DNA of 64,000 nt from Candidatus Latescibacterota bacterium (GTDB taxonomy: Bacteria; Latescibacterota; UBA2968; UBA8231): contig OZ252098.1 of NCBI GenBank assembly GCA_965248355.1, positions 2,912,001 through 2,976,000 on the forward strand, read 5' to 3'. The notes beneath the pieces were generated by a model. The model was not told the origin of the DNA and ran no database searches. It saw only the letters and a program-made list of their open reading frames with translations. The translations under genes and the position numbers were made by a program. Of the stretch, positions 14,776 to 42,855 are shown piece after piece. Position 1 is the first letter of the stretch. Each line of letters opens with the position of its first letter.

Positions 14776-14963
14776 GCGGGCAGACGCCGCCAGCTCGACC
14801 TGGGACTCGGTGCCCCGTAGTACCCCGGGACCGTTGGTGAATGCTCGACGCCTGCCTTGAGGACGGCATCCGCCCGGCCCCGCTTGCTCCGGATTATCCC
14901 CGCGCATATACTGCACATATATTCACCGTCCTCCGGCGCCCGCGACAAAGGCAGGCCGCCCCC

Positions 14964-16049
14964 ATGCCCGACCCCATCGCCCCCCAGCCTCCCGGCAAGA
15001 GGGGCCGCGCCGCCGGCTTCAACCCCCCCAACCGCTTCGAGCCCCTGCACCTGGAGCCCGACCCGGCCGAGCCCGGCGAGGAGGGCTTTCAGGAGCGGGT
15101 CCCCACCAGCTACCTGATCGACGCCAGCCGCTCGATCCTGGCCGAGAACGACTCGCCCGACGTCGGCTTCCGCTTCAGCCTGAACCCCTACCGCGGCTGC
15201 GAGCACGGCTGCGTCTACTGCTACGCCCGGCCCAGCCACGAGTACCTGGGGTTCTCGGCGGGGCTCGACTTCGAGACCAAGATCCTGGTCAAGGAGCAGG
15301 CCCCGGAGCTGCTGGAGGCGGCCCTGCGCAAGAGGTCGTGGCAGCCGCAGGTCGTGGCCCTGTCGGGCAACACCGACTGCTACCAGCCGGTGGAGCGGCG
15401 GCTTCAGCTCACGCGGCGGTGCCTGGAGGTGTTCCTCAAGTTCCGCAACCCGGTGAGCCTGATCACCAAGAACCACCTGGTCACGCGCGACCTCGACATC
15501 CTTGAGAGCATGGCGGCCCTCGACCTGGTGCACGTGACCCTGTCGATCACCAGCCTCGACCGCCGGCTCACGGCGGCCATGGAGCCGCGCACGTCGCGGC
15601 CCGAGCGGCGGCTGCAAGCCCTTGAGGAGCTGTCCCGGGCCGGCGTGCCGGCAGGGGTCAACGTGGCGCCCCTGATCCCGGGGCTCAACGATTCGGAGGC
15701 GCCGGCCATCCTGGAGGCGGCGGCGGCGCGGGGGGCGCGCTGGGCCCACTACATCCTGGTGCGCCTGCCCGGGGCCGTGCGGCCCCTGTTCCTGGACTGG
15801 CTGCAGCGCCACTACCCCGACCGGGCGAGCAAGGTCGTGCACCGGCTCGAGGCGGTGCGGGGGGGACAGCTCTCCGACGCCCGCTACGGCAGCCGCATGC
15901 GGGGCGAGGGGGAGCTGGCGGAGCTGGTGAGCCGGTTCTTCGAGATCGCCAAGAGGCGGCACGGGCTGGACCGGGATGGGCACGAGCTGGCCGTGCACCG
16001 GTTCCGGCGCCAGGGGGCGGATCAGCTGGAGCTGTTCGGGGAGGGGTGA
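14964..16049 (+). CDS. PA0069/SplB-like radical SAM protein
   Basis: [19 protein letters not shown] (CxxxCxxC), NTDCYQP, C-terminal QLELF. Confidence 0.9.
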   Translation: MPDPIAPQPPGKRGRAAGFNPPNRFEPLHLEPDPAEPGEEGFQERVPTSYLIDASRSILAENDSPDVGFRFSLNPYRGCEHGCVYCYARPSHEYLGFSAGLDFETKILVKEQAPELLEAALRKRSWQPQVVALSGNTDCYQPVERRLQLTRRCLEVFLKFRNPVSLITKNHLVTRDLDILESMAALDLVHVTLSITSLDRRLTAAMEPRTSRPERRLQALEELSRAGVPAGVNVAPLIPGLNDSEAPAILEAAAARGARWAHYILVRLPGAVRPLFLDWLQRHYPDRASKVVHRLEAVRGGQLSDARYGSRMRGEGELAELVSRFFEIAKRRHGLDRDGHELAVHRFRRQGADQLELFGEG

Positions 16050-16089
16050 GGGCGGCTGCCCGGACTGCCCGGGGCCTCCCGGCGGCCTG

Positions 16090-16632
16090 TTGGCCCTCGC
16101 CCTGGCCGGGGGCCTGGTCGTCGTGGACGGTCCGCCCGGCTCCCTGCTGAACCGGCTGCCGCGGAGCCAGTGGCAGCAACTGCCCCGGGGCACCCCCGCC
16201 CCCGACTTCCAGCTGGCCGCGGTCGCAGGATCCGGACTGGAACTGGCCGACCTGAAGGGCCGGTCCTCGGCAGTCGTGTTCGTCACCACCACCTGCCGCT
16301 ACTGCAACGAGTTGAAGGCCAACCTGCTCGGCGCGGGGCTGCCGGACCTGGATGGGCGCCTGGTCTTCATCAACGGTCCCGACGACGGTCCGTCAGCAGA
16401 GCCGCCCGAGGACAGCGTCGAGGCGCGGATCCGCGACTTGTACCCCGTCCTTCAGGACACCACGGGAGAGACGTCGCTGGCGTACTACGCCGTCAGCGTG
16501 CCCACGGCCTACCGGCTCGACCCGGAGGGCACGGTGGCGGCGGCGGCCCGGGGCGTCGAGCCGGTCCAGGAACTGGTCGAGGAGCTGGCCCAGGCCGTGG
16601 CCTTGGACGAGGACTGCCGGTCGTGTCGCTAG
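16090..16632 (+). CDS. Membrane-anchored TlpA/peroxiredoxin-like thiol-disulfide oxidoreductase
   Basis: APDFQL...LADLKGR, TTTCRYC, VSVPTAYRLD (cis-Pro loop), C-terminal CRSC; start uncertain (in-frame TTG 16090; may be 5'-truncated). Confidence 0.7.
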   Translation: MALALAGGLVVVDGPPGSLLNRLPRSQWQQLPRGTPAPDFQLAAVAGSGLELADLKGRSSAVVFVTTTCRYCNELKANLLGAGLPDLDGRLVFINGPDDGPSAEPPEDSVEARIRDLYPVLQDTTGETSLAYYAVSVPTAYRLDPEGTVAAAARGVEPVQELVEELAQAVALDEDCRSCR

Positions 16633-17675
16633 GCGATCCTGTCCTTTGGGTGGAGCTGGCGATGCTGTCGGCGCTGCTGACGGCCGGCCTCTGTGTCGCC
16701 TACACGGATCTCCGGTTCCAGCGGGTGCCGAACCGCTACACCTTGGGGCTGCTCGGCATCGGCGTGACCGGCCAGGTGGCGATGGTGGGACTGGGCGTGG
16801 GCGGCTGGAACCAGGTCGCAGGGACCCTGCTCCTGGGGCTGGGCGTGGCGCTCCTGATGATGCTGGCGGGGGTCTGGTCGCCGGGCGACGCCAAGATGTA
16901 CTGGGCGGCCGTGGCCGCCCTGCCGCCGAGCCTGTGCCCGGTGGGGAAATGGCTCTCCCTGGAAACGCCTCCGGCCGCTCTCATAGTCAACGCCCTGGTC
17001 GCCTACGTCGCAGTGCTCCTGGCGGTGGTGGCCTGGCGTCAACGGCCGTTGAAGACGGTCAAGGGAAACCGGGGGCCATGGCTGCAGGCCGCCGCCGGGC
17101 TGGGGGGCCTGCTCGGCTTGGCCCTGAGCTTCGCCCAGCTCGTCCTGAACCGGCCCCTGAGCTACCTGGAAGCCTTCGCGTTCCTCGTCGTGGGATACCG
17201 CCTGCTGGAGTGGGGCCTGAAGCCGGATAGGCGTCCGGTGGTGATGATCCCCGGGCTGGCGGCTCTCGCGCTGCTGGCCGTGTCGACCGGCGGCTGGAAG
17301 GACTATCTCCTGATCTGGGCTACGACGTGGCTGCTGGAGCTGGCCTTTCAGCAGGTACGGCACGGGAGCGGGCGGGCCTTCGGGTACGAAGTGCCGATAG
17401 GGCGGCTTCAGCCGGGGGCGATCCTGCGGCACCGGATGATCCTGGCCGGGGACGATGGGGCGGAGGTGATCTGGGAGGGCGGGGAGAGCCTCGATCGGGA
17501 AAGGGTCAACCTGCTGCAAAAGCGGACGGCCTCCGGCGACCTGCCCCGGAGGGTCGAGCTGGCGCGGGCCATGCCCTTCGTCCCCTTCCTCGTGCTTGGC
17601 GGGCTAGCCACCGCCGCCTTCGGCGGCCACTTGGCCCCGCCCTTGAGGGCCTTGCTCGTGTGGCTCAACGGATGA
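16623..17675 (+). CDS. A24 family prepilin/preflagellin peptidase (GxGD-type aspartic protease, FlaK-like long form)
   Basis: YTDLRFQRVPN (Asp1), SPGDAK (Asp2), multiple TM helices, C-terminal AMPFVPFL. Confidence 0.85.
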   Translation: MSLGDPVLWVELAMLSALLTAGLCVAYTDLRFQRVPNRYTLGLLGIGVTGQVAMVGLGVGGWNQVAGTLLLGLGVALLMMLAGVWSPGDAKMYWAAVAALPPSLCPVGKWLSLETPPAALIVNALVAYVAVLLAVVAWRQRPLKTVKGNRGPWLQAAAGLGGLLGLALSFAQLVLNRPLSYLEAFAFLVVGYRLLEWGLKPDRRPVVMIPGLAALALLAVSTGGWKDYLLIWATTWLLELAFQQVRHGSGRAFGYEVPIGRLQPGAILRHRMILAGDDGAEVIWEGGESLDRERVNLLQKRTASGDLPRRVELARAMPFVPFLVLGGLATAAFGGHLAPPLRALLVWLNG

Positions 17676-17780
17676 ATTCGCACCCCCTGCGGCTGAGAGA
17701 GGAGGCATGTGGCGCACAGCAGGATGGAATGGAGGAGTCTCGGAATCAACGCAGTTCATTTCCTTACGGAGGAGTGAGTT

Positions 17781-18086
17781 ATGTTGAAGCGGTTTCGTAA
17801 CCTTGTGGGCGGCTTCATCGCCAGCGAGGACGGCGTCAGGCAGCAGGCGATCCTGCCCGTGGCCTGGGTCGGTGCCGTGATGATGGCTGGGGCCGTCGTG
17901 CTAAACATGCCCGACAAGGCGCAGGCCAGCACCTATTGTTGGGCGGGTGGGTGCCCCAACACGAGCCCCGCTGTCAACTGCAACTATGAGTGTCAGAACA
18001 GCAGCAGCTGCGAGCAGAATTGGGGCACATGCCTCTACTATGGTTCATCGGGGCTCAAGCGCTGCCGGTGTCAGGACCCGTCGTAG
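17781..18086 (+). CDS. Cys-rich defensin-like peptide precursor with Flp-pilin-like leader
   Basis: GGAGGAG RBS; leader ...FIASEDG|V, hydrophobic segment, AQA site, 52-aa core with 8 Cys including CxxxC, GxC, CxC. Confidence 0.75.
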   Translation: MLKRFRNLVGGFIASEDGVRQQAILPVAWVGAVMMAGAVVLNMPDKAQASTYCWAGGCPNTSPAVNCNYECQNSSSCEQNWGTCLYYGSSGLKRCRCQDPS

Positions 18087-20235
18087 TGCACCTTCGTGCT
18101 GATGCGTTGCGCGTCTGACGTGCATCAGCAAGATCCTGGGAGCGGGGGCATGGCCCTCGCTCCCCTCTTCAATGGAGATGAACACCATGCATTTCGCTAT
18201 CTCCTGCCTGCTGGTCTTGCTCGCCACCCGTGTCTTCGCCCACGCCGGCGACGAGATCTACCCCTTCCTCGAGCTGCTCGACGAGGACCTGGACCGCATC
18301 GACCTGACCGACGGCAGCGTCGAGGACTGGCTCGAGGTCCTCGGCGAGCCCTCGCTGACGGCCAGCGACTTCTATTGGGTGAACTATCACTACGATCCCT
18401 CGGAATTGGACTTCCGCATCTGGCTCGCCTGGCACCAGGGCAGCAACACCGTCTGGGTCGCCATGGAGCGCTTCGACGACCTCTACTTCAACCGCTACGA
18501 CGGGGGCAATGTCGCCGATATGTGGCTTTGGGATTCCAACATCGCCTTCTTTGTCGACGGCGACCACACCGCCGGGCAGTACAGCCAATATCACGGGCCC
18601 GACTGCAAGTATTGCACCCCCGAGCGGATTCTTGCCCGCAACCGTCAGGCGCAGCGGTGGTTGGCGATTGCCGAGGCGGCCAATGGCGAGATCCTGGGCT
18701 ACGACGGCTTCAGCGAGTGGGTGGTCCGGGAACCGTACGCCGCCGCGGGCAGCGGCGTCATCGGCCAGAGCCCGGCGATCACGGTCGTCGAGTTCAAGGT
18801 GACGCCCTTCGACGATCTCATCTACGACGACGAGGACGCCTCCGAGGTCTCGCAACTCCGCCCTGGCAAGACCATCGGGTTCACCATGACCACGAACGAC
18901 AACGACGCGACGGAGTACAAGGACGGATTGGGGCCGGCGATCCATCTCTCCCTCGGCCCCGAGGTGCTGAACCTGAGGGTCAACGCCTCTCTCTTCGTCG
19001 ACGGCCTGCTGGTCGGCGCGGGAGAAGACCCCTCCAGCTACGACGACGTTTCCGCCGTGGAGCCGTCCTCCTGGGCGCGCATCAAGGCCGCCCTGAAGTA
19101 GACCGCCCAGGGGGGCCACCGCCCTCCGGCCCCGCCAGCACGCCTGCGCCCCGATCTTCCCCTATATTCCCCGCTTCATCGGGGCTGAAGCGCTGCCGGT
19201 GTCAGTGGCCGTCGTAGTTCATCCTCGGGCGCCCTGATGCGTTGCGCGTCTGACGTGCATCAGCAAGATCTTGGGAGCGGGGGCATGGCCCTCGCTCCCT
19301 CTTCCTTGGAGACGAACATCATGCGTTTCGGTATTTCCTGCCTGTTGGTCTTGCTCGCCACCCGTGTCGTCGCCCACATCGGCGACGAGATCTACCCCTT
19401 CCTCGAGCTCCTCGACGAGGACCTTGCTCGCATCGACCTGACCGATGGCAGCGTCGAGGACTGGTTGGAAGTCATCGGCGAGCCCTCGCTGACGGCCAGC
19501 GACTTCTATTGGCTGAACTATCGCTACGATCCCTCGGAATTGGACTTCCGCATCTGGCTCGCGTGGCACCAGGCCAGCAACACCGTCTGGGTCGCCATGG
19601 AGCGCTTCGACGACCTCTACTTCAACCGCTACGACGGGGGCGGACTCAGCCGGATGCACCTCTGGGATTCCAGCATCGCCTTCCTGGTCGACGGCGACCA
19701 CACCGCCGGGGTGTACGGCGAATGGATCGGGGCCGAGCGCGACTGCGAGACATGCACGCCCGAGCGGGTTCTTTCCCACAACCGTCAGGCGCAGCGGTGG
19801 ATGGCGATTGCCGAGGCGCCCGATGGCGACATCCTGGACTACGACGGCTTCAGCGAGTGGGTGGTCCGGGAACCGTACGCCCTCGCCGGCAGCGGCGTCC
19901 TCGGCCATAGCCCGGCGACCACGGTCGTCGAGTTCATGGTGACGCCCTTCGACGATCTCATCTACGACGACGAGGACGCCTCCGAGGTCTCGCAACTCCA
20001 CCCTGGCAAGACCATCGGGTTCACCATGACCACCAGCGACAACGACGCTACTGGGCACCAGGACGGATTCGGGCCCAAGATACAGCTCACCCTCGGCGCC
20101 GAGGTGCTGAACCTGAGGGTCAACGCCTCTCTCTTCGTCGACGGCCTGTTGGTCGGCGCCGGAGAAGACCCCTCCCGCTACGACGACGTTTCCGCCGTGG
20201 AGCCGTCCTCCTGGGCGCGCATCAAGGCCGCCCTG
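18044..20235 (+). repeat. Tandem duplication (~18044-19095 / ~19175-20235) covering the defensin 3' end, spacer and CBM9-like gene
   Basis: Near-identical intergenic and coding sequence in both copies (e.g. gatgcgttgcgcgtctgacgtgcatcagcaagatc). Confidence 0.85.
18187..19101 (+). CDS. Secreted CBM9/DOMON-like protein, paralog 3
   Basis: Signal peptide VFA|HAGD; tail SAVEPSSWARIKAALK. Confidence 0.7.
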   Translation: MHFAISCLLVLLATRVFAHAGDEIYPFLELLDEDLDRIDLTDGSVEDWLEVLGEPSLTASDFYWVNYHYDPSELDFRIWLAWHQGSNTVWVAMERFDDLYFNRYDGGNVADMWLWDSNIAFFVDGDHTAGQYSQYHGPDCKYCTPERILARNRQAQRWLAIAEAANGEILGYDGFSEWVVREPYAAAGSGVIGQSPAITVVEFKVTPFDDLIYDDEDASEVSQLRPGKTIGFTMTTNDNDATEYKDGLGPAIHLSLGPEVLNLRVNASLFVDGLLVGAGEDPSSYDDVSAVEPSSWARIKAALK

Positions 20236-20250
20236 CGGGTGCGTCGCTGA
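19321..20250 (+). CDS. Secreted CBM9/DOMON-like protein, paralog 4
   Basis: Closest to paralog 3; tail SAVEPSSWARIKAALRVRR. Confidence 0.7.
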   Translation: MRFGISCLLVLLATRVVAHIGDEIYPFLELLDEDLARIDLTDGSVEDWLEVIGEPSLTASDFYWLNYRYDPSELDFRIWLAWHQASNTVWVAMERFDDLYFNRYDGGGLSRMHLWDSSIAFLVDGDHTAGVYGEWIGAERDCETCTPERVLSHNRQAQRWMAIAEAPDGDILDYDGFSEWVVREPYALAGSGVLGHSPATTVVEFMVTPFDDLIYDDEDASEVSQLHPGKTIGFTMTTSDNDATGHQDGFGPKIQLTLGAEVLNLRVNASLFVDGLLVGAGEDPSRYDDVSAVEPSSWARIKAALRVRR

Positions 20251-23905: not shown

Positions 23906-25111
23906 ATGAACATCGGCCTGATCGGTCACGGCTTCCGGCCCATCGCCGGGGGCCTGGAGCGCCCGCTTCGGGACTGCGCCGCCGGCCTCGCCCGGCGCGG
24001 CTGCCGGGTCCGCGTGCTGTCCATCGTCGGAGAGGGGTGCCGGCTGCCGCGCGACGAGGTCCTGCACCCGCCCGGCGGCTCCCCCGTCCAGGTGCACCGG
24101 GCCGCGGTGCCGCGCCCGGCCGCCAACGGCGATCCTCTTGCCGAGCCGGAGATCCCGGCCAGCGCCTGCCGGGGGCTCGCCCCGCACTGGTGCTCGCTGC
24201 TGGCCGACGCCGACGTGGTCTGCACCTTCGGCGCTTCACCGGCCCTGGCCGGCGCCGAGGTCCGCGCGCGGCTCGGACTCCCCTTCATCGCCGTTCTCCC
24301 CGGTCTGCCCAGCCAGGCCGACGCCCGCTTCCAGGAGGTCCTGCGCTGCGGCGCCGATCTGTTCGTCGGCGTCTCCCGCTCCATGTGCCGGCGCGCCGAG
24401 GAGCGCTTCGGCCTGCGCATGATCCCGGTCTGCAACGGCGTCGATACCGGGTTCTTCCAGCCCGTAGCGGCCCCGGCCGCCGAGTCGGCCCTCGGCCGCT
24501 ACGAGGTGCTGCGCGGCCTCCCGGGCCCGCTGATCACCAGCCCCGCGCGGCTCGATCCGGGTAATGGGCTCGAGCTGCTGATCGAGGCCTTCGAGCTGGT
24601 CGTCTCCCTGCGCCCCGACACCAGTCTGCTGATCACGGGCCTCGGCAGCCTCCGCCATCACCCCCTGGGGAACTCCTACGCCGATTACCTGGCCGGCCTG
24701 GTGGAACTGAAGGAGCTGGGCGCCAAGGTGCGCTTCGGCCGCGGCGTGTTCGAGGCCCGGCACATGCCCGCTCTCTACTCGCGCTCCCACCTGTGCGTCC
24801 TGACCGGCGCCGGCGAGGGCTTCGGCCTCGAATGGGCCGAGTCGCTGGCCTGCGAGACACCGGTGGTGGCCACCCGCACCGAAGGCATGGCCGAACTCTT
24901 CGGCCACGGCACCGGAGGCCTCTTGGTCGACGGCCGCGATCCGGTGAAGGTGGCCCAGGGCATCCTCCCCCTGCTCGACGACGACGGCCTGCGGCGCCGC
25001 CTCGGCCGCAGCGGCCGCGAGCACGTCCGCCGCGCCTTCCCGCTGCAGGCGCAGGCCGACCGCTACCTCGAGCTGTTCACGTCCATCCGGGCCGCCCGCG
25101 CCGCCGCCTGA
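23906..25111 (+). CDS. Family 4 glycosyltransferase
   Basis: FRPIAGGLE, NGVDTGFF, ARLDPGNG, EGFGLEWAE (E-x7-E), TPVVAT. Confidence 0.88.
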   Translation: MNIGLIGHGFRPIAGGLERPLRDCAAGLARRGCRVRVLSIVGEGCRLPRDEVLHPPGGSPVQVHRAAVPRPAANGDPLAEPEIPASACRGLAPHWCSLLADADVVCTFGASPALAGAEVRARLGLPFIAVLPGLPSQADARFQEVLRCGADLFVGVSRSMCRRAEERFGLRMIPVCNGVDTGFFQPVAAPAAESALGRYEVLRGLPGPLITSPARLDPGNGLELLIEAFELVVSLRPDTSLLITGLGSLRHHPLGNSYADYLAGLVELKELGAKVRFGRGVFEARHMPALYSRSHLCVLTGAGEGFGLEWAESLACETPVVATRTEGMAELFGHGTGGLLVDGRDPVKVAQGILPLLDDDGLRRRLGRSGREHVRRAFPLQAQADRYLELFTSIRAARAAA

Positions 25112-25125
25112 GGAGACCGGAAAGG

Positions 25126-26559
25126 ATGCCTCAAATGCAGCCGGAGTTTCTCGAGTATCTCCATCTTCCCGACGACGGCACGGCCCTGCTGAAGCCCACC
25201 CTCGAGAGTCTGCTCGAGTTGGCCAGAGAAGAGGCCGGGGACGAGTTCCCGTCGATCCGGCAACGACTCGAGGACGCCCACGCCGCGCTCGGCGGCGATG
25301 CCCGGGCCGCCGCGAGTTCCTTCCAGGGGGTCCAGGCGGCATGGCCGAATCCCGCCGCTTCCATGGCGGCCGGCGTCGCCCTCGCCCTGGCGTCGGATTG
25401 GCGCGGCGCCCTGGAGGTCTTCTCCGCGAACGCCGACCTGCTCGAGGCGAGGGGCCTTCCCGAGGCGGCTCTGGGCTGCCGGCTGAACCAGGCCTACATG
25501 CACTCCGTTCTGGGCGACTCGTCCAGCGCCGAGTCGACCCTCGATCAAGTCGTGGGGGCCTCGAGGCTCGCCGGGAAGACCCGGCTGCTGGCAACCGGAC
25601 TCCACGCCAAGGCGGTCCTCCGGTTGCGTCACGGCCGTTTCCCGGAGGCCCGGCAGGAGTGTGAGAGGGCGATGGCGGAATGCCCCGGGGAGCCCGAGCT
25701 GGCCCAGGTCATGGGTACGCAGGGCGTTGCCTCCCAGGCCCTCGGAGAGCTCCCGCGGGCGGAGAAGGAGTTCAGGGCCTCCCTGTCGCTGGCCTCGGGG
25801 GCTTCGCCCTTAGCGGAGTTGCGGGCCTCGGTCAACCTGGCCGTGCTCTGCCAGCTCACGGCGCGCGGCACCGAGGCCCTGGACCTGCTCGCCGGGGCCA
25901 CGGCCATCGCCGAGCGGCAGGGGGACGTGCGGTTCCTCGCCAAGGTTCGGTTCCTGCGGGCCCTGCTGGCCTTCGCGGAGACCGGGGAGGAGGCCATCCC
26001 GGCCGCCCTCGACGGCGTCGAGCAGATGCGCATCCATGGCTACCGCAAGGGAGAGCTGGACTCCATTGCCATGGTGGTCCCGTGCCTCCTCGAGTGCGGC
26101 AAGGCCCTGGAAGCGGAGACCCTGGCCGCGTCGGCGGTGAGCACGGCGGAAGAAACCGGATACCTGGCCGGGCTCCTCGAAGCGATGTCCAGCGCCGCCC
26201 TGGTCCATCTCGCCGGCGCCGACCTCGAGCGCGCGAGGGAGATGGCTTGCCGCCTCCTTGAGAAGAGCGCCGCGGCGGAGCTGCCCATGATCGCCGTCAA
26301 GGCCCACCGGGTCCTGTCGGACGTGTCGCTGCAGGAGGGAGAGCCGGAAAGAGCCCTGGAGCACCTTCGACGGGCGGAGGGAGCGGCCGCGGAGATGGGG
26401 GCCCAGGTGCTGCAGTGCCACCTCATGGAGGGAGTGGCCGGCCTCCTCGAGATCTGCGGAAGAATCGACGAGGCCGAGGCGGAGAGAGCGGCCGCCCAGG
26501 CGCGGGCGCTCTCCATCGGAGTGGGGAGGACTACCGGAGTCGGGAACAACATCGAATGA
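25126..26559 (+). CDS. TPR-repeat (MalT-TPR-like) protein with no recognisable output domain
   Basis: Repeated Ala/Leu-rich helical TPR-like units (e.g. NLAVLCQLTARGTEALDLL). Confidence 0.7.
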   Translation: MPQMQPEFLEYLHLPDDGTALLKPTLESLLELAREEAGDEFPSIRQRLEDAHAALGGDARAAASSFQGVQAAWPNPAASMAAGVALALASDWRGALEVFSANADLLEARGLPEAALGCRLNQAYMHSVLGDSSSAESTLDQVVGASRLAGKTRLLATGLHAKAVLRLRHGRFPEARQECERAMAECPGEPELAQVMGTQGVASQALGELPRAEKEFRASLSLASGASPLAELRASVNLAVLCQLTARGTEALDLLAGATAIAERQGDVRFLAKVRFLRALLAFAETGEEAIPAALDGVEQMRIHGYRKGELDSIAMVVPCLLECGKALEAETLAASAVSTAEETGYLAGLLEAMSSAALVHLAGADLERAREMACRLLEKSAAAELPMIAVKAHRVLSDVSLQEGEPERALEHLRRAEGAAAEMGAQVLQCHLMEGVAGLLEICGRIDEAEAERAAAQARALSIGVGRTTGVGNNIE

Positions 26560-26608
26560 ACACGGGGGCATCTACGAGGGCGCTACATTCACCGGAAGGA
26601 GATCCATC

Positions 26609-26836
26609 ATGAACAGACTCATCAAGCCCCAGAAGCAGTCTTACACCGGCGAGGACGCCCAGGTCCTTGCTTATTCCGATGCCTGCGAGATAGCATGGCT
26701 CATGAACCTCTGCTCTGGCGGCATAGGCGCCGCAGTCTTGTTGGGCCTCGCCGTGCCGCCGGCCCTGGTCGCGTTCGGCGTGTCGTGCTTCATCATGTAC
26801 GTCATCACCTCGGCGGCGTGCAAGGGCTACATCTGA
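26609..26836 (+). CDS. RiPP/bacteriocin-like precursor peptide 1 (75 aa)
   Basis: GAAGGAG RBS; leader MNRLIKPQKQSYTGEDAQVLAY, 4-Cys hydrophobic core ending KGYI. Confidence 0.88.
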   Translation: MNRLIKPQKQSYTGEDAQVLAYSDACEIAWLMNLCSGGIGAAVLLGLAVPPALVAFGVSCFIMYVITSAACKGYI

Positions 26837-26950
26837 TCCATTCCTCCCCGGCCCTTCTTTCAGTCGTGGACCGTCCTGATGAGCGGGACGAACAACGAAT
26901 GAACAGGGGGCATCTACGTGGGCGCTACATTCACCGGAAGGAGATCCATC

Positions 26951-27166
26951 ATGAACAGACTCAACAAGCCCCGAAAGCAGTCCTACACGGGCGATGACAC
27001 TCAGGTCGTTGCCTACTCCCGTCTCTGCGAGATGACGTGGACGACCGCCTTCTGCACAAGCTCCCTGCCCTTCCTCGGCGGCGTGCATCCCTTCCTGGTC
27101 GCGGTGGGAGTGAGCTGCTCCATCTTCTCCATGGTCTGTTCGGCGGTGAGCAACGGTTACATCTGA
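26951..27166 (+). CDS. RiPP/bacteriocin-like precursor peptide 2 (71 aa)
   Basis: Same RBS/5' block; leader MNRLNKPRKQSYTGDDTQVVAY, core ending NGYI. Confidence 0.88.
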   Translation: MNRLNKPRKQSYTGDDTQVVAYSRLCEMTWTTAFCTSSLPFLGGVHPFLVAVGVSCSIFSMVCSAVSNGYI

Positions 27167-27387
27167 TCCCGTCACGCCGAGACTTGCGGCATAGACGCGA
27201 ACGTCGATAAGACAAACCCCTTAGCGCCCCGTAGATGCCCCCATGATCGAATCGTCTCGTCCCTGCCATGATCCCCATCCATGCCACCGGTTCTTTTGGA
27301 GTCGGGGCCCGTGACGGGGGGACGAACAACGAATTGAACAGGGGGCATCTACGTGGGCGCTACATTCACATCGGAAGGAGATCCATC

Positions 27388-27609
27388 ATGAGCAAACTCA
27401 TCAAGCCGCAGAAGCAGTCCTACACCGGCGAGGACTCCCAGGTCCTTGCCTACTCCCTTGCCTGCGAGATTGCGTGGGCCACCCAGTACTGCGTGGCCTT
27501 GGTAGCGGTTGCTCTCATTTTTGGCGGGCCGGCTGGGGTGGCCGGGGTTGGCATCCTGTGTGTCGTCATCTACGTCGTCTCCACGTCGGCGTGCCACGGT
27601 TACATCTGA
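27388..27609 (+). CDS. RiPP/bacteriocin-like precursor peptide 3 (73 aa)
   Basis: Same RBS/5' block; leader MSKLIKPQKQSYTGEDSQVLAY, core ending HGYI. Confidence 0.88.
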   Translation: MSKLIKPQKQSYTGEDSQVLAYSLACEIAWATQYCVALVAVALIFGGPAGVAGVGILCVVIYVVSTSACHGYI

Positions 27610-27683
27610 CCTTCTCCCGAGAATTGCACCGTGCCTAGTACTCACTGACCAACCAAACCCCTTAGCGCCCCGTAGATGCCCCC

Positions 27684-29348
27684 ATGATCACAACATTCCT
27701 GTCGTCCTTGCCCCGGGTTTCGGAAGCGCTCTCCTACGCGGTCCGGGTCGAGGCCCGCACCCTGCGCCACGAGGCCCGGTCGAAGCCGGGAGACTTCTGG
27801 CCTGCCGTCGTACTCCTGGCCGCGGCCGGAGGGTTCTTCTGGCTGGGTCTCTGGTTATCACTCCACATCACCAAGGGCCTTCTCGGCGACGGGAACCCCG
27901 AGCTGGCCCTGGCCCTGGCCTCCGTGTTTCTCGCCTCCTACGCCTTCCTGTGGTTCTGCTTCGCCGTCGGCTTCGGCGGAGAGATCGTACCGATCTCCCG
28001 CCTGGAGAAGCTCGCCCAGCTTCGATGGACCCCGGGGCAGGCCTACGCGGCGGGCCTGGTGATGGCCGCCTTCAAGCCCCTGCCCCTGTTCTTCTCCCTG
28101 AGCTTCCTGACGATCGGGCTCACGCTCTTCCCGCCGGCCGGCGCCGCGTCCGTGCTGGCCTCGGGCCTGGCCACGGGCGTGACCGCTCTCGGCATCGTCG
28201 CCTTGACCCAGGGCGCCCGCTGCGCCATCGAGCTGGCGTCCTGGAAGGGCGCGCTGAGGACACTCGCCCGCGTCCTCGCGGGCGGACTGTTCGTGGCCCT
28301 GAGCCTGTTGCTCGCCTGGTCCCTGGTCGGCGGCGACTGGATCGAGCGGATTCGCGGGATTCCGGGCTCCTGGATCGAGATGGCGCCCACAAGCCTGCTG
28401 GCCCGGGCCTATCACCTGGCGGGGGAGGGACGCCTCGCGGACCTGCCGGGGCCCCTGGCCCTGCTCGGCGCCTTCGCGGCGGCCGGCTTCCTCTTCGGCT
28501 GGCGCCTCACCCGCCGGCGGGTCTTCCTCGCGGGCGGGTCCCGCCTGGCCCCGGCCGGCCCGCGCGACCGGATCCCGGGTCTGGCGCGGTGGCTCGGGCG
28601 GGTCCTGCCGCCGCCCTATCCGAACTTGGTGGTCCGCGAGGTGCTGGCCGCGATTCGCTGGAAGCAGCTCTGGATACAGGCGGCGTTGGCCGCGATGTTC
28701 GCATGCGGCGCTGCCATCACTCCTGCTCTCGCCCTCGCGGCCGGCGACGGACGCGCCAGTTTTCCCTACCCCTGGCAGATGCATGGCCTGGCGGTCGGCT
28801 TTCTCGCCGTCTTCCAGAGCGGGCTCGCGACCAACCTGTTCTCGAGAGACGGCAGGGCCGCCTGCGAGTACCTGCTTCTGCCCCTTGCCGAGCGGGAGAT
28901 CCTGGCGAGCAAGAACATCGCCTTCGCGATCATCCAGTACGCGGTGACGGCCCTCTGCGCCCCTGTCCTCCTCTTCGTGCTCTGGTTCCACGATCTCCTC
29001 GGACCCGGGCTCCAGGCCCTCGGGGCCGTGGTCCTGGCCCCCTTGGCGTTTGTCATCAGCGGCAACTATCTCTCGATCCTCAACCCCGCCAAGTCGCCCG
29101 GATCGAAGAAAGACCCGAGAGGCCATGTCCCGCGGAACAGCGGCCTCCTCCAGCTACTGCTGGGGACTCTCCTCGGCGCCGCGACGGCCCTGTATTTCTC
29201 GATCGATTCCGGGTACCTGCGCTACGCGGCGGCGGCCTTCGGGGTCCTGGCCGCGGCGGGGCTGCCGGCGGGGTACGTCCTCGCCCTGCGCCACCAGACC
29301 CGGCTGCTCCGGCAACGGCGCCTCGCCGTGGCGGAAGTGTTCTCGTAA
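27684..29348 (+). CDS. Polytopic ABC-2-type permease (export/immunity)
   Basis: ~12 TM helices; NLFSRDG..YLLLPL..ILASKN motif; precedes ABC ATPase. Confidence 0.75.
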   Translation: MITTFLSSLPRVSEALSYAVRVEARTLRHEARSKPGDFWPAVVLLAAAGGFFWLGLWLSLHITKGLLGDGNPELALALASVFLASYAFLWFCFAVGFGGEIVPISRLEKLAQLRWTPGQAYAAGLVMAAFKPLPLFFSLSFLTIGLTLFPPAGAASVLASGLATGVTALGIVALTQGARCAIELASWKGALRTLARVLAGGLFVALSLLLAWSLVGGDWIERIRGIPGSWIEMAPTSLLARAYHLAGEGRLADLPGPLALLGAFAAAGFLFGWRLTRRRVFLAGGSRLAPAGPRDRIPGLARWLGRVLPPPYPNLVVREVLAAIRWKQLWIQAALAAMFACGAAITPALALAAGDGRASFPYPWQMHGLAVGFLAVFQSGLATNLFSRDGRAACEYLLLPLAEREILASKNIAFAIIQYAVTALCAPVLLFVLWFHDLLGPGLQALGAVVLAPLAFVISGNYLSILNPAKSPGSKKDPRGHVPRNSGLLQLLLGTLLGAATALYFSIDSGYLRYAAAAFGVLAAAGLPAGYVLALRHQTRLLRQRRLAVAEVFS

Positions 29349-32415: not shown

Positions 32416-33189
32416 ATGAAGAGATGGGCAGAGAGAGGCACGAAGGAGGAGGAGAGGGCGCACCTGGTGGACCGCGTGCGCCTCGTGGTGGCGTCGCCGC
32501 GGCAGGCTCTCGGCGCCATCCTCGAGAGCCGCCCCTGGGTGGACGTATTCGTGGTGCTGAGCCTGGGGAGCGCGCTGTTCTCGTGCCTCTCCCTGCACCT
32601 GGCGGGGGACCAACTGGAGCTCGTGCCGGCCGGACTGCTCACCGAGTCCCAGCAGGATGTCGTCGCCGTCCTGAGGTTCGCGGCGATCGTCCTGCTTGCG
32701 TTCCCGGTCACCCTCGTCAGCCTCCTGGCGCCCGCGTTCTTCCTGTGGCTGCTGGTGCAGATGTTCGAGGAATGGAGCGACTTCCGGTCGATCCTGGCCG
32801 TCGTCGCCCACGCGAGTCTGGTGTTGCTGTTCTCCCAGGCGGCGGACACCATCCTGCTCGCCCTGAGATTGCAGGGGCAAGAGGCCGTGGGCCTCTCGGA
32901 GATGGGAGCCCAGGCCGATCTGGGCCTGCTCTTCGACCTCGGCGGGGCCCCCCTTCTCGCGGTCCTCCTGTCGTACACCAGCCCTTTCAAGATCTGGTTC
33001 TATGGACTCCTCGTCCTCGGCATCGGCCGGGCCTGCCGGCTGACCTGGCCGCGCAGCGCCGGCGTCGTGGCGCTCCTCCTCGTCGCCAGCCTCGCGCTGA
33101 GAGTGAGCCTCACCTTCCTGACGGATTCGGCCTCCGAGTCCCTCACCGCCGACTCCGACTGCCCCGCCTGCGAGCTGCTGCCACACTGA
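32416..33189 (+). CDS. Yip1-domain membrane protein with C-terminal CxxC
   Basis: VVASPRQAL...FRSILAVVAHA...SPFKIWFYGLLVLGI; ends DSDCPACELLPH. Confidence 0.8.
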   Translation: MKRWAERGTKEEERAHLVDRVRLVVASPRQALGAILESRPWVDVFVVLSLGSALFSCLSLHLAGDQLELVPAGLLTESQQDVVAVLRFAAIVLLAFPVTLVSLLAPAFFLWLLVQMFEEWSDFRSILAVVAHASLVLLFSQAADTILLALRLQGQEAVGLSEMGAQADLGLLFDLGGAPLLAVLLSYTSPFKIWFYGLLVLGIGRACRLTWPRSAGVVALLLVASLALRVSLTFLTDSASESLTADSDCPACELLPH

Positions 33190-35114
33190 TGGCCAATCTC
33201 TCCTTTGCGGACCTGACGGGACGTGGGGTGCGCGTCGCCATCATCGACAGCGGCCTCGACACCTCCCGCCCCGACCTCGCGAGGAACGTCGTCGGAGGCG
33301 TCTCGATCCAAGTCGGGGACGACGGGACCATTCGGCGGAGCGAGGACTACGCCGACGAGGCGGGACACGGCACCGCCTGCGCCGGGATCCTCCGCGGCCT
33401 GGCTCCCGAGGTGGAGCTGTCGATCATCCGGATCTTCGACGCCCTCCTCTCCGCCCGGGCCTCGGTCCTGGAGGCCGCCCTCGAGCACGCCGGCGAGGAG
33501 GGCGCTCACGTCATCAACGCGAGCCTCGGAGTCACCGACACCGCGGTCGCCGGCCGTCTCCGGGATGTCTGCCGCAGCCTTCAGCGCGCCGGCATCTGCA
33601 TCGTCTCCGCTCAACCCCGCGGCGGCGAGCGCAGCTTTCCCGCGGAGTTCGAGGAGGTGATCGGCGTCGAGGACGGGGACGTCCGCGGCAAGTACGGGTA
33701 CCACTACCGCGCCGGCCGGCCCATCGAATGCGTCGCCAAGGGAGGCCCCCGCCGGGTCGTCTGGCTGAACGGGGAAGAGGCGCTGAAGAGCGGCGCGAGC
33801 TACGCCGCACCCCATATCAGCGGCATCGTGGCGCTCCTGAAGGAACGGTACCCAACGGCCGGCCTCGAGGAGATGCGGAGGCTGCTCGAGAGCAACGCCA
33901 CCAGCCCCCCGAGCGCGAGTCCCCGGGGACGGGGGAAGAAAGCCCGGAGCCCCGGGGGAAAGGGGCGCCCCGGCCGGGTGGATCGGCGGCCCTCCTCGCC
34001 GTGGATGCGCCGCGTCGTCCTGTACCCCTACAGCAAGGAGCTCCACGGCCTCGTCCGCTTTCGGGATCTCACGGGCCTGGAGGTGGTGGGCGTGGCCGAT
34101 CCGGCGGGCCGGCGCCTGGTGGGCAAGGACGCGGGAGAAGCGATCGGCGCGGAACCCGCGGGTGTCATGATCGGGCCTGCCCTCGCCGGCGAGCTGGGCG
34201 CCGGTGACACGGTGATCCTGGGCTATCTCGACGAGCTCGGACGGATCGCGAAACGCGACCTGCTGAGGGATGCCATCGAAGCCGCCCTCGCCGGCAACCG
34301 CAACGTCTACAGCCTGAATGCGGTGCCCGAGTTGAGGTATGGAGACTTGTACGCCGAGAGCCGCCGCAGGGGGCTCCGGTTGGCCTATCCCTCGGTCTCC
34401 ATCGCCGAGGTGGAGAGGACGATCCGGGAGAAGTCGACCCTGGGCAAGATCGCCGTGCCCGTCATCGGCTTCTTCGGGACGAGCTCCCAGCAGGGAAAGT
34501 TCACCGCCCAGCTGGCCTTGCGCCGCCATCTGCTGAAGCAGGGCTACCGGGTCGGCCAGCTCGGCACGGAGCACCAGTCCGGGCTCTTCGGTTTCGACTA
34601 CACCTTCCCCATGGGGTACGCCTCGCCCCTCGAACTGCCCCTTCAGCGCTTCGAGCCCTTCCTGGACGCCAAGCTCAGGGAGATCCATCACGACAAGAAG
34701 CCCGATGTGCTCATCGTCGGGTCCCAGTCGGGCACCATCCCCTTCGCCATCGACGAGCCCCGGAGCCATCACTTCGGGAGTCTCGCCTTCCTGTTGGGCG
34801 CCAAACCCGATGTCTGCGTGCTGGCGGTCAACTGCATGGACCCGGAGGAGTACGTGAGGCACACCATCGACGCCATCCGGATCGTCGGGAAGGCCCGGAC
34901 GATCTGTCTCCTGCTCAGCGACAAGCAGAGGCGCGTGGAGTCGGCCCATGGCCACACCTGGATGAGTTCCAGGGTCCTGAAGGGCGCGGCGCTGCAGGAG
35001 GCGCTGAAGGACCTGGAGGACCGGTTCGGCCTTCCCGCGGTATGCCCCGCCGACCCCGGCGGTCAACGCCGCCTCGCAGAGACCGTGGAGACGGCGCTCT
35101 CGGCGGCCGCCTGA
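33189..35114 (+). CDS. S8 peptidase fused to a DUF1611/TIGR04066-like P-loop domain (peptide maturation protein)
   Basis: IIDSG / GHGTACAG / SGASYAAPH triad; C-terminal PVIGFFGTSSQQGKFT...GYRVGQLGTE...VGSQSG. Confidence 0.8.
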   Translation: MANLSFADLTGRGVRVAIIDSGLDTSRPDLARNVVGGVSIQVGDDGTIRRSEDYADEAGHGTACAGILRGLAPEVELSIIRIFDALLSARASVLEAALEHAGEEGAHVINASLGVTDTAVAGRLRDVCRSLQRAGICIVSAQPRGGERSFPAEFEEVIGVEDGDVRGKYGYHYRAGRPIECVAKGGPRRVVWLNGEEALKSGASYAAPHISGIVALLKERYPTAGLEEMRRLLESNATSPPSASPRGRGKKARSPGGKGRPGRVDRRPSSPWMRRVVLYPYSKELHGLVRFRDLTGLEVVGVADPAGRRLVGKDAGEAIGAEPAGVMIGPALAGELGAGDTVILGYLDELGRIAKRDLLRDAIEAALAGNRNVYSLNAVPELRYGDLYAESRRRGLRLAYPSVSIAEVERTIREKSTLGKIAVPVIGFFGTSSQQGKFTAQLALRRHLLKQGYRVGQLGTEHQSGLFGFDYTFPMGYASPLELPLQRFEPFLDAKLREIHHDKKPDVLIVGSQSGTIPFAIDEPRSHHFGSLAFLLGAKPDVCVLAVNCMDPEEYVRHTIDAIRIVGKARTICLLLSDKQRRVESAHGHTWMSSRVLKGAALQEALKDLEDRFGLPAVCPADPGGQRRLAETVETALSAAA

Positions 35115-38511: not shown

Positions 38512-39208
38512 ATCCGCCTGCAAGGTCTACCGGAAGGGGCCGGAGCGGGTGCGCGCCCTGTGGGATGTCGACGCCGCCTTCGGCCCCGGAGAGTTCGTGG
38601 CCCTCATGGGTCCCTCCGGCTCCGGGAAGACGACGATGCTCAACATCATCGGCTGTCTCGACTACCTGACGGCGGGGAGGTATCTGCTGCAGGGAGAGGA
38701 TGTAACCGGCTTGAATCCCATCCGCCTCGCCGAGGTCCGAAGCCGGAAGATCGGGTTCGTCTTCCAGAGCTTTCACCTGCTGCCGAGGGCGACGGCCGCG
38801 GAGAACGTCGAGCTCCCCCGGATCTACGCGGGATCAAGCCGGCGCCAGCGCAGAGAGTGCGCCCACGCGGCCCTCGAACGAGTCGGACTGGCGGATCGCC
38901 GCGACTTCCGGCCGGAAGAGCTGTCCGGGGGCCAGCGGCAGCGAGTGGCCATCGCCAGGGCCCTGGTGAATGAACCCTCTCTCATTCTGGCCGATGAGCC
39001 GACCGGCAGCCTGGACCCCCAGGCCGCCGGAGGGGTCATGGACCTCTTCACGAGACTGAACGACGAAGGCATCGCCATCGTCCTGGTCACCCACCAGGAA
39101 GACGTGGCACGGCACGCCAGGCGGAAGATCCGCCTGGCCGATGGGCGGGTGATCCCCGCACCCGACGGACCGGCGTGTCCCGCGCAAACACGAGAGACCC
39201 ACAGATGA
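38495..39208 (+). CDS. MacB/LolD-type ABC ATP-binding protein
   Basis: GPSGSGKTT, LSGGQRQR, ADEPTG, VTH. Confidence 0.92.
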   Translation: MLVELESACKVYRKGPERVRALWDVDAAFGPGEFVALMGPSGSGKTTMLNIIGCLDYLTAGRYLLQGEDVTGLNPIRLAEVRSRKIGFVFQSFHLLPRATAAENVELPRIYAGSSRRQRRECAHAALERVGLADRRDFRPEELSGGQRQRVAIARALVNEPSLILADEPTGSLDPQAAGGVMDLFTRLNDEGIAIVLVTHQEDVARHARRKIRLADGRVIPAPDGPACPAQTRETHR

Positions 39209-39471
39209 CGAAAGCGGAGATCACCGGCAGGGTCCGGGAGGCCGTGGTGAAGGCCCTTGAGCTGCCCATCGGGCCCGAGGAACTCCCCGAGAGCGAGCCC
39301 CTCTTCGGCGCCGACGGCGAAGTCGATTCGATCCTGTCGATCAAGCTGGTCGTCGAGCTGGAGGAAGCCTTCGGAATCGACGTCGACGATGACGATCTGA
39401 CGGAGGAACTCTTCGGGACGGTCGCGGCCCTGGCGGCGTACGTGGAAACCAAACTGGCTGGCCGGGGGTGA
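39205..39471 (+). CDS. Acyl carrier protein
   Basis: Acidic 88 aa; VDSILSIKLVVELEEAFGIDV with the phosphopantetheine Ser. Confidence 0.88.
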   Translation: MTKAEITGRVREAVVKALELPIGPEELPESEPLFGADGEVDSILSIKLVVELEEAFGIDVDDDDLTEELFGTVAALAAYVETKLAGRG

Positions 39472-41515: not shown

Positions 41516-41741
41516 GGGACAAGACTCCGCTTGCTCGTGACGTTGCTTTGCCAGATGGGCACCACTTATGGTGCTTCCGCCTGCTGACTTACCCAATCCA
41601 GATGATTCTCGCTTGATTCTCGCTTCATACCCAACACAAGTCAAGTCCGAATCGAATTGCGATCGGTAGTGTACCCCAAATCCTGGACAGGTGGCTAAGC
41701 GAGACTTTGCGTCCACCGACCCACTGTCCGGAGGGGCTTGG

Positions 41742-42035
41742 ATGACGAGGAAACGCAAGACGCATTCGGCGCAGTTCAAGGCCAAGGTGGCCTTGGAGGC
41801 TCTGCGCGAACGGCAGACAGTCAACGAGCTGGCCCACAAGTTCTCCGTCCACCCCAGCCAGATCCACGGCTGGAAGAAGCAGTTGCTGGAGCGGCTGCCC
41901 GAGGTCTTCCGGGGCCCCGGGACCCGCCGGGCCGACGACGAGGCCGCCTTGGTGCCCGAGCTCTACCAGCAGATCGGGCGGCTGCAGATGGAACTGGAGT
42001 GGCTTCAAAAAAAACACGAGGCTCTCGGTGGCTGA
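41742..42035 (+). CDS. IS3 transposase OrfA (HTH)
   Basis: [17 protein letters not shown]...[18 protein letters not shown]. Confidence 0.9.
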
Positions 42036-42855
42036 GCGCCGCGCCCTCATCGAGCCGCACCCCGGCCCGCTGAGCGTGCATCGGCAGTGCCAACTGCTCG
42101 GGCTGGCCCGCTCCAGTTTCTACTACCGCCCGGAGGCGCCGGATCGGCTCACCCTCGACCTGATGAACGCCATCGACCGGATCTACACCGAGCACCCGGT
42201 CTACGGCGTGCGCCGGATCTGCGCGGCCCTGAGGCGGGACGGCTACCCGGTCAATCCCAAGCGCGTGCACCGCCTGATGAAGGCCCTGGGCCTGCAGGCG
42301 ATCTATCCCCGGCCGCGACCGACCACCCCCAACCCTCAGCACCGGGTCTATCCGTATCTGCTGCGAGGGGTGACCGTGAACCGGCCGGACCAGGTGTGGT
42401 GCAGCGACATCACCCATCTGCCGATGCCCTCCGGCTTCGTCTACCTGGTGGCGGTCATGGACTGGTTCAGCCGCTACGTGCTGGCCTGGCGGGTCTCCAA
42501 CACCCTCGACGCGGCCTTCTGCCTGGAGGCCCTGGAGGAAGCCCTGAGCCAGGGGCGGCCGGAGATCTTCAACACCGACCAGGGGGCCCAGTTCACCAGC
42601 ACCGCCTTCACCGGGCGGGTCGAGGCGGCCGGGGCCCGGGTGAGCATGGACGGCCGCGGCCGGGTGCTGGACAACATCTTCATCGAGCGGCTGTGGCGCT
42701 CCCTGAAGTACGAGGACATCTACCTGAAGGCCTACGACAGCGTCCCCGAGTTGATCGAGGGCGTGGCGGCCTACTTCCGCTTCTACAACCTCGAGCGGCC
42801 GCACCAGGCCTTCGACTACGAGACCCCCAGCGATGTCTACCACCGGGCGGCCTGA
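42028..42855 (+). CDS. IS3 transposase OrfB (DDE integrase core)
   Basis: [29 protein letters not shown]. Confidence 0.92.

Follow-up and report, generated by a model that had tools for sequence, protein, structure and literature searches.

A predicted RNA stem enclosing peptide-precursor-like genes in Latescibacterota as a candidate RNase III processing element

The gene cluster and its class

The window, that is, the whole 64,000-nucleotide stretch of Candidatus Latescibacterota DNA analysed here, contains a gene cluster lying entirely on one strand. Its first part consists of two glycosyltransferase genes and a gene for a BtrH-like protein, a TPR protein gene, three ORFs of 71–75 aa and a permease gene; after the permease come an ABC ATPase, an ABC exporter, Yip1, a fusion of an S8 protease with a TIGR04066-like domain, HlyD, two MacB proteins and a carrier protein. 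The three small ORFs have a common leader ending in VLAY, and their cores are variable, hydrophobic and Cys-containing. It is from this leader/core anatomy, together with the protease and exporter context, that the small ORFs are labelled as putative peptide precursors and the cluster as RiPP-like. No sigma-70-like promoter was found in 26300–27900. The main features are given below, where F and R are the forward and reverse copies of an inverted repeat.

24793..26559, + strand: open frame of a TPR-repeat protein, which probably starts further downstream; stop 4 nt ahead of F1
26564..26585, + strand: F1, 5′ arm of the predicted stem, N=A; without an R of its own, predicted partner R2, round the whole array
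26594..26601, + strand: Shine-Dalgarno sequence of precursor 1, GGAAGGAG, outside the stem
26609..26836, + strand: putative precursor 1, 75 aa; conserved leader of about 22 aa ending in VLAY, variable hydrophobic Cys-containing core
26906..26927, + strand: F2, 5′ arm, N=T
26951..27166, + strand: putative precursor 2, 71 aa
27213..27248, + strand: 36-nt direct-repeat block with R1; joint of cassette gain and loss between strains
27222..27242, + strand: R1, 3′ arm, reverse complement of F minus N
27341..27362, + strand: F3, 5′ arm, N=T
27388..27609, + strand: putative precursor 3, 73 aa
27654..27689, + strand: second copy of the 36-nt block, holding R2 and the permease start
27663..27683, + strand: R2, 3′ arm, adjoining the permease ATG
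27684..29348, + strand: membrane permease-like protein, 554 aa; no Pfam or NCBIfam match, no Shine-Dalgarno sequence before the ATG
33186..35114, + strand: fusion of an S8 protease with a TIGR04066-like (DUF1611) domain, the marker by which the family was collected; start deduced from its overlap with the preceding stop
39175..39471, + strand: acyl-carrier-like protein at the cluster end; gene class used as control in relatives

The cluster resembles the clostridial CLI_3235/CcpM system (TIGR04065, TIGR04066) in its TIGR04066-like protein, S8 protease and carrier-like protein, and in precursor leaders that have basic residues and end in xAY. However, it cannot be assigned to that system: no CcpM radical SAM protein was matched among the cluster genes scanned, the precursors of the window do not match the CLI_3235 precursor model, and the TIGR04066-like domain, here fused to the protease, reaches 108 bits against a cut-off of 200, which none of the 168 genomes of the phylum exceeds. 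The TIGR04066-like domain is found in 86 of these 168 genomes, where the fusion clusters combine a carrier-like protein with hypervariable small precursors that fall into at least 29 leader groups. Twelve precursors (three from the window and nine from relatives) gave no meaningful NCBIfam match when scanned, and the fusion clusters look like a large undescribed RiPP-like family.

Several other elements were seen in the window. Genes for a radical SAM protein and an A24 prepilin peptidase, followed by a 101-aa Cys-rich ORF (17781–18086), lie at 14841–18086 and may form a second peptide system, one whose leader is pilin-like; the flank helix score of the Cys-rich ORF is just 29. The regions 18172–19101 and 19237–20250 encode paralogous secreted-looking proteins, both ending in PSSWARIKAAL and with repeated flanking DNA, the former without a Pfam match. 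An IS3-like element (HTH_21 and rve integrase) lies at 41691–42855, just past the cluster.

Copies and locus specificity of the repeat

When the repeat was searched for again in the stretch, all copies of the initial annotation were recovered: three forward copies starting at 26564, 26906 and 27341, and two reverse copies starting at 27222 and 27663. The forward arm has the composition GGGGGCATCTACG-N-GGGCGCTA, in which the variable base N is A at 26564–26585 and T at 26906–26927 and 27341–27362, and R, at 27222–27242 and 27663–27683, is the exact reverse complement of F minus N. The last R ends at 27683 and is directly adjoined by the permease ATG at 27684, as had been described. Precursor 1 has an F and no R. 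R is embedded in a 36-nt block, identical at 27213–27248 and 27654–27689. Across 13 F copies from four genomes, N is T in nine, A in two and C in two, while no change is seen at the 12 positions on its left or the 6 on its right.

In 100 shuffles, chance matches to F/R had a mean of 0.00–0.01. Throughout the single-contig 5.5-Mb genome, the 21-mer was found at up to three mismatches only in its five local copies; five genome matches at four mismatches look unrelated to F/R. The copies are confined to the locus, and a dispersed REP or MITE element, the finding which the initial annotation had set against its own reading, is rejected because the genome has no further copies at up to three mismatches. 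In Rfam there was no match at the gathering score, the best being 17.5 bits against 46.7 and located inside an ORF. Multi-copy matches in a pattern search of the phylum were confined to the same genus, and a metagenome pattern scan gave 103 stretches, of which each of the 80 listed holds a single match and is taken as chance. At 69% GC, a scan of the whole genome for inverted repeats gave too much noise for candidates to be ranked; outside the window, a near-perfect inverted repeat of about 40 bp with a 172-nt loop was seen at G000 C1:4217978–4218228.

Predicted fold in the window

The predicted F:R duplex consists of 13 bp, one bulge and 8 bp, with an energy of −44.3 kcal/mol, and in a single folded cassette the F:R pairing probability is 0.95. 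For the array of the window, the predicted lowest-energy state consists of an R1:F3 hairpin and an outer F1:R2 stem, and states in which ORFs are singly enclosed lie 11–13 kcal/mol above it. That is to say, the original proposal that pairing closes a precursor ORF into a loop agrees with the helices predicted across the family (described below), but the window array in its lowest-energy fold closes the whole array instead. F2:R1 could form first, during transcription. C/A-rich, G-poor linkers lie inside both arms (27640–27662 and 26586–26593) in every cassette and are predicted to be largely unpaired, so that the arms would stay accessible.

An anti-Shine-Dalgarno sequence just past the stop codon, suspected by eye, was inconsistent across 11 folded cassettes. 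Likewise, 5′/3′ pairing of the icaR type, occluding the Shine-Dalgarno sequence, found no consistent partner for that sequence in the 11 cassettes; across the family, the 5′ arm ends 18–66 nt ahead of the ATG, and the ribosome-binding site is therefore free.

Predicted enclosing helices across the phylum

At distant loci, found by the permease or precursor profile, the gene order is TPR, small ORF and permease-like, and in G121, G122, G035 and G010 the small ORF lies inside a predicted helix whose sequence differs from that of the window. The phylum-wide comparison was based on the 168 genomes of Latescibacterota. Regions of 20 kb round 60 of the 131 TIGR04066-like places listed, picked for high score and long contigs, were fetched and analysed together with 8 other loci and the window. 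Precursors were picked by a leader pattern (66 matches), from which 6 were removed as non-precursors after their low scores were known; 12 precursors were added by eye from a score-free list, and 5 precursors of the window family were added, one being lost at a contig end. The final set comprised 76 precursor ORFs from 58 loci of 42 genomes. For each ORF the best helix between −95..−10 and +1..+160 was compared with 200 dinucleotide shuffles.

A helix enclosing the ORF between 5′UTR and 3′UTR was found at p≤0.01 for 42/76 precursors (42/82 with the six removed matches), and for 45/76 when only Watson-Crick pairs were scored, compared with 1/37 carrier-protein genes and 0/257 other small ORFs at p≤0.01. 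At a score of at least 36, the counts were 37/76 for precursors, 0/37 for carrier genes and 9/702 for long genes. The stem occurs in 29 of the 42 precursor-holding genomes and in 20/29 leader groups (22/29 with Watson-Crick-only scoring), mostly with unrelated sequences, the groups not being fully independent events because they possibly have common ancestry. Own flanks scored at least 30 in 19/29 groups, against 11 of 812 pairs of crossed flanks. At p≤0.01 the stem is absent from 34/76 precursors and 9/29 leader groups.

Medians for the predicted stems are 20 bp and −36.5 kcal/mol; lengths range over 13–35 bp, with short stems of 13–16 bp in 6/20 groups. The single bulge emphasised by the initial annotation is not a family feature, since the helices of several relatives are unbroken. 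In helices defined by Watson-Crick pairs, the internal defects on the mRNA strand are G-U in 19 cases versus A-C in 3 (p=0.0009; 11 groups versus 1), compared with 11 G-U and 20 A-C in the crossed control; defects of the G-U rather than the A-C kind on the mRNA strand argue for an RNA stem. An earlier permissive symmetric count (G-U 87 versus A-C 82) gave no bias because its alignments extended into unpaired flanks, and it was replaced by the count above. Related stems also change on both arms, as between G019 and G033 and among G113, G116 and G033. The claim that an RNA duplex enclosing precursor ORFs is under selection is thus upheld on a wider basis: the predicted helix is kept through sequence turnover phylum-wide, and its wobbles favour the mRNA strand. 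The further suggestion that permease initiation is occluded does not hold as a general trait; it is local at most, because among the 20 groups the 3′ arm adjoins the next start in the window's lineage only.

A strong local 3′ hairpin (≤ −20 kcal/mol) is found in 8/11 stemless groups versus 2/18 groups with a stem (Mann-Whitney p=0.026 for energies and 0.069 for z-scores), as if the enclosing stem and the 3′ hairpin were alternatives. The relation of stem presence to the nearness of an upstream gene was not significant (13/18 versus 4/10, p=0.12). Three plasmid loci from beyond the phylum (Bacillus, Clostridium, Streptomyces) gave no candidate at p≤0.01; the best value, 0.049, belongs to the one Clostridium precursor tested, which has a weak enclosing helix together with a 3′ hairpin. 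At the Bacillus plasmid locus (L265, NZ_CP139484.1, 9648–15448), an S8/TIGR04066-like fusion is accompanied by DUF692 and carrier-protein genes and by two 44-aa precursors that are nearly identical and have no enclosing stem. At L204, L205, L207 and L212, stemless precursors of the MQKLVKRKMHY group have as neighbours several genes for small membrane proteins with CxxC, which may be immunity genes.

Cassette number and the DNA-site question

Of nine genomes of the genus, four matched the region of the repeat. There are four cassettes in G002 and three in G004, every one arranged F-ORF-R; G006, with four ORFs, has lost two R-to-F junctions, and G007 keeps just R, ahead of the permease. In G007 (L016), unrelated genes replace the precursor array and the TPR gene, and R stays together with the export and protease genes. 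In G006 (L013, 9276–9602), precursor 3 is without arms of its own and is enclosed by an upstream R and a downstream F. After the two junction deletions it could still be clamped in reverse order, and with this helix, formed by the arms of its neighbours, it is counted among the 42/76 above. A complete F-R pair is missing in 3/14 cassettes of the window's lineage. The spacer 3′ of internal R copies resembles the permease gene start, and the sequence 5′ of internal F copies resembles the TPR gene end, just as a unit with a single F and R reads TPR end, F, precursor, R and permease start. Judging from these sequences, the ancestral unit was apparently one F and one R round one gene and was then duplicated in tandem, as a result of which F and R copies became pairable in several registers. 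Within this lineage, most paired changes fall at the end of the helix, and enclosing and intergenic pairing cannot be told apart by them.

To follow variation among strains, DNA contigs were examined for 8 of the 24 runs listed, each from a different study; one run is possibly the source sample. Two of these runs lack a cassette, the joints falling within the 36-nt block, and three have one more; the cassette number among strains ranges from 2 to 4 or more. No strand-change (inversion) joint was found in the 8 DNA runs, whose contigs drop rare variants, and in four genomes all cassettes have a single orientation. The initial annotation had offered DNA recombination sites for cassette expansion or inversion as an alternative. 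This alternative is not supported: the lack of strand-change joints in the 8 runs speaks against the inversion and, with the single orientation in four genomes, against an invertible segment of the shufflon type. Cassettes are gained and lost at the direct repeats. An integron attC cassette was also rejected: the unit is F-ORF-R, and single-gene loci have one arm per side and no hairpin after the gene.

The more general idea of F and R as elements of the DNA itself (sites of inversion or recombination, MITE ends or attC-like hairpins) can point to the strains that differ in cassette number with joints at the repeat block, and to the loss of two R-to-F junctions in G006. These joints, however, lie in direct repeats, as ordinary recombination gives. 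Against this idea stand also the genome without dispersed copies, the uniform strand, the single-gene loci with an arm to either side of the gene, and the family in which sequences turn over, complementarity stays and G-U bias marks the mRNA strand. It is already largely refuted and retains a hardly perceptible likelihood.

Probable RNase III processing and its rivals

The arms are complementary, locus-specific and intergenic, and they leave the ribosome-binding site free. The preferred explanation, to which a probability of roughly 0.58 is given, is that F and R are the arms of a long-range stem from which RNase III would release a stable precursor mRNA in the manner of rRNA. That the precursor message is selectively kept, with or without RNase III, is regarded as probable. 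In this model the precursor genes would be co-transcribed with the flanking genes, and F and R would pair in vivo, looping out the precursor gene or genes within the operon message; RNase III would then cut the stem and produce a short precursor mRNA with paired ends, which would have a longer half-life than the rest of the operon, and precursor would finally be made in excess over the transporters and the protease. In the window array, whichever F/R register formed, the precursors would be separated or surrounded by RNase III sites.

RNase III processing stems enclose 16S and 23S rRNA, and in this genome both rRNAs are likewise enclosed by long stems. The genome encodes an RNase III (PF14622 above cut-off), whose translation contains the catalytic motif and a C-terminal domain of the dsRNA-binding type. 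RtcB is encoded too, yet a circular mRNA is not favoured, because RNase III ends are not known to be RtcB substrates. In B. subtilis, RNase III cuts mRNA duplexes of 10–36 bp, at sites up to 505 nt apart (bioRxiv 10.1101/2023.03.12.532304); the window's predicted duplex of 21 bp and the family's 13–35 bp lie within this range of length. In E. coli, double cuts distant in sequence are infrequent, with a median of 58 nt (PMC6212723). The WSSW preference, which is that of E. coli and differs from that of B. subtilis, appears in the stems of 13/20 groups against 12.5 expected; the word RGGCY, chosen post hoc and missing from the window's own stem, appears in 9/20 groups against 2.3. Points against release by RNase III are the rarity of distant double cuts in E. 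coli, the lack of WSSW enrichment, the short stems (6/20), the stemless precursors (34/76), the cassettes of the window's lineage without a full F-R pair (3/14), an array fold that does not enclose each ORF, and the S. aureus duplexes of icaR and yabJ-spoVG, which lower expression.

The same precursor excess could be reached by another route, in which the stem is not an RNase III substrate and protects the precursor cistron as in hbs: it would mask RNase Y or RNase E/G sites and halt 3′ exonucleases, and other nucleases would trim the flanks up to the clamp. Such protection would suit the groups with stems of 13–16 bp, which are like the 14-bp hbs pairing (PMC5737220); no RNase III sequence signature was found in the stems, two RNase Y genes and RNase E/G are encoded, and stemless groups tend to a 3′ hairpin. 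Most stems, however, are longer and stronger, of the size cut by RNase III elsewhere, and no RNase J above cut-off was found in the genome, so that a 5′ arm would be unneeded as an exonuclease block. Protection without RNase III is considered rather unlikely.

A stem that lowers expression, of the icaR or yabJ-spoVG type, would act on the precursor or on the next gene, here by hiding or stripping the permease start. R adjoins the permease ATG in each of five same-genus genomes, none of which has a Shine-Dalgarno sequence there, and cutting of the stem would leave a permease leader of about 10 nt or less. As a precedent, a duplex of the yabJ 5′UTR with the intercistronic region represses spoVG via RNase III (bioRxiv 10.64898/2026.09.18.752551). 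The precursor Shine-Dalgarno sequence, however, is never within the stem, and the contact of the 3′ arm with the next start is peculiar to one lineage. Peptide pathways normally need precursor in excess, which is a further point against a negative element, and such an element is judged improbable. A partial transcription terminator downstream of the precursor is more doubtful still: at least 5 T in the 8 nt after the 3′ arm were found in 4/20 groups, but 16/20 lack such a U-rich tail, ATGATC follows the window's R, and a terminator scan found none at R.

Comparison with known systems

In peptide pathways one operon must yield far more precursor than enzyme, and the solutions described in the sources available are local 3′ stem-loops. 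A broader picture, held to be somewhat short of an even chance, would be that Latescibacterota peptide clusters handle their precursor genes like rRNA: a sequence-independent stem, rebuilt for each precursor and duplicated as a cassette, would be cut by RNase III to give a stable closed-end mini-mRNA, and it would serve generally in place of the 3′ hairpin to set precursor-to-enzyme ratios. If this is true, the stem would be a homology-free marker for precursors and also a transferable part with which a single gene of an operon could be raised. The stem test singled out precursors here with almost no false positives, and it may help to locate hypervariable precursors in a phylum that is uncultured. 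In the literature that could be consulted, subscription journals and supplements aside, no description of stems enclosing peptide-precursor genes was found.

The rRNA processing stems are of a similar kind, and there too pairing of the flanks places a complete gene in a loop of a polycistronic transcript; here, by contrast, a translated ORF of about 70–150 codons with a free ribosome-binding site is enclosed, and cleavage is predicted. In B. subtilis, the 5′/3′-UTR pairing of hbs (14 bp, −19 kcal/mol) restricts RNase Y cleavage, so that it too is UTR-to-UTR pairing round a small, highly expressed ORF that restrains a nuclease; but hbs is a transcript with its own terminator, whereas the stems described here are of about 20 bp, lie within operons and occur throughout a gene family (PMC5737220). 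The S. aureus icaR and yabJ-spoVG cases involve RNase III, and there the cis duplexes lower expression (bioRxiv 10.64898/2026.09.18.752551); here the ribosome-binding site is outside the stem and a gain of precursor mRNA is predicted. The Clostridium cip-cel operon undergoes selective RNA processing and stabilisation (SRPS) with local 3′ stem-loops, and, as in the precursor clusters, processing together with RNA structure would set the gene ratio within one operon; the structure here is instead long-range and gene-enclosing, and it is the stemless relatives that look SRPS-like (PMC4423207). Long-range UTR pairing is already known at single genes (hbs, icaR and yabJ-spoVG), and here it is predicted as a family-wide design round peptide-precursor genes.
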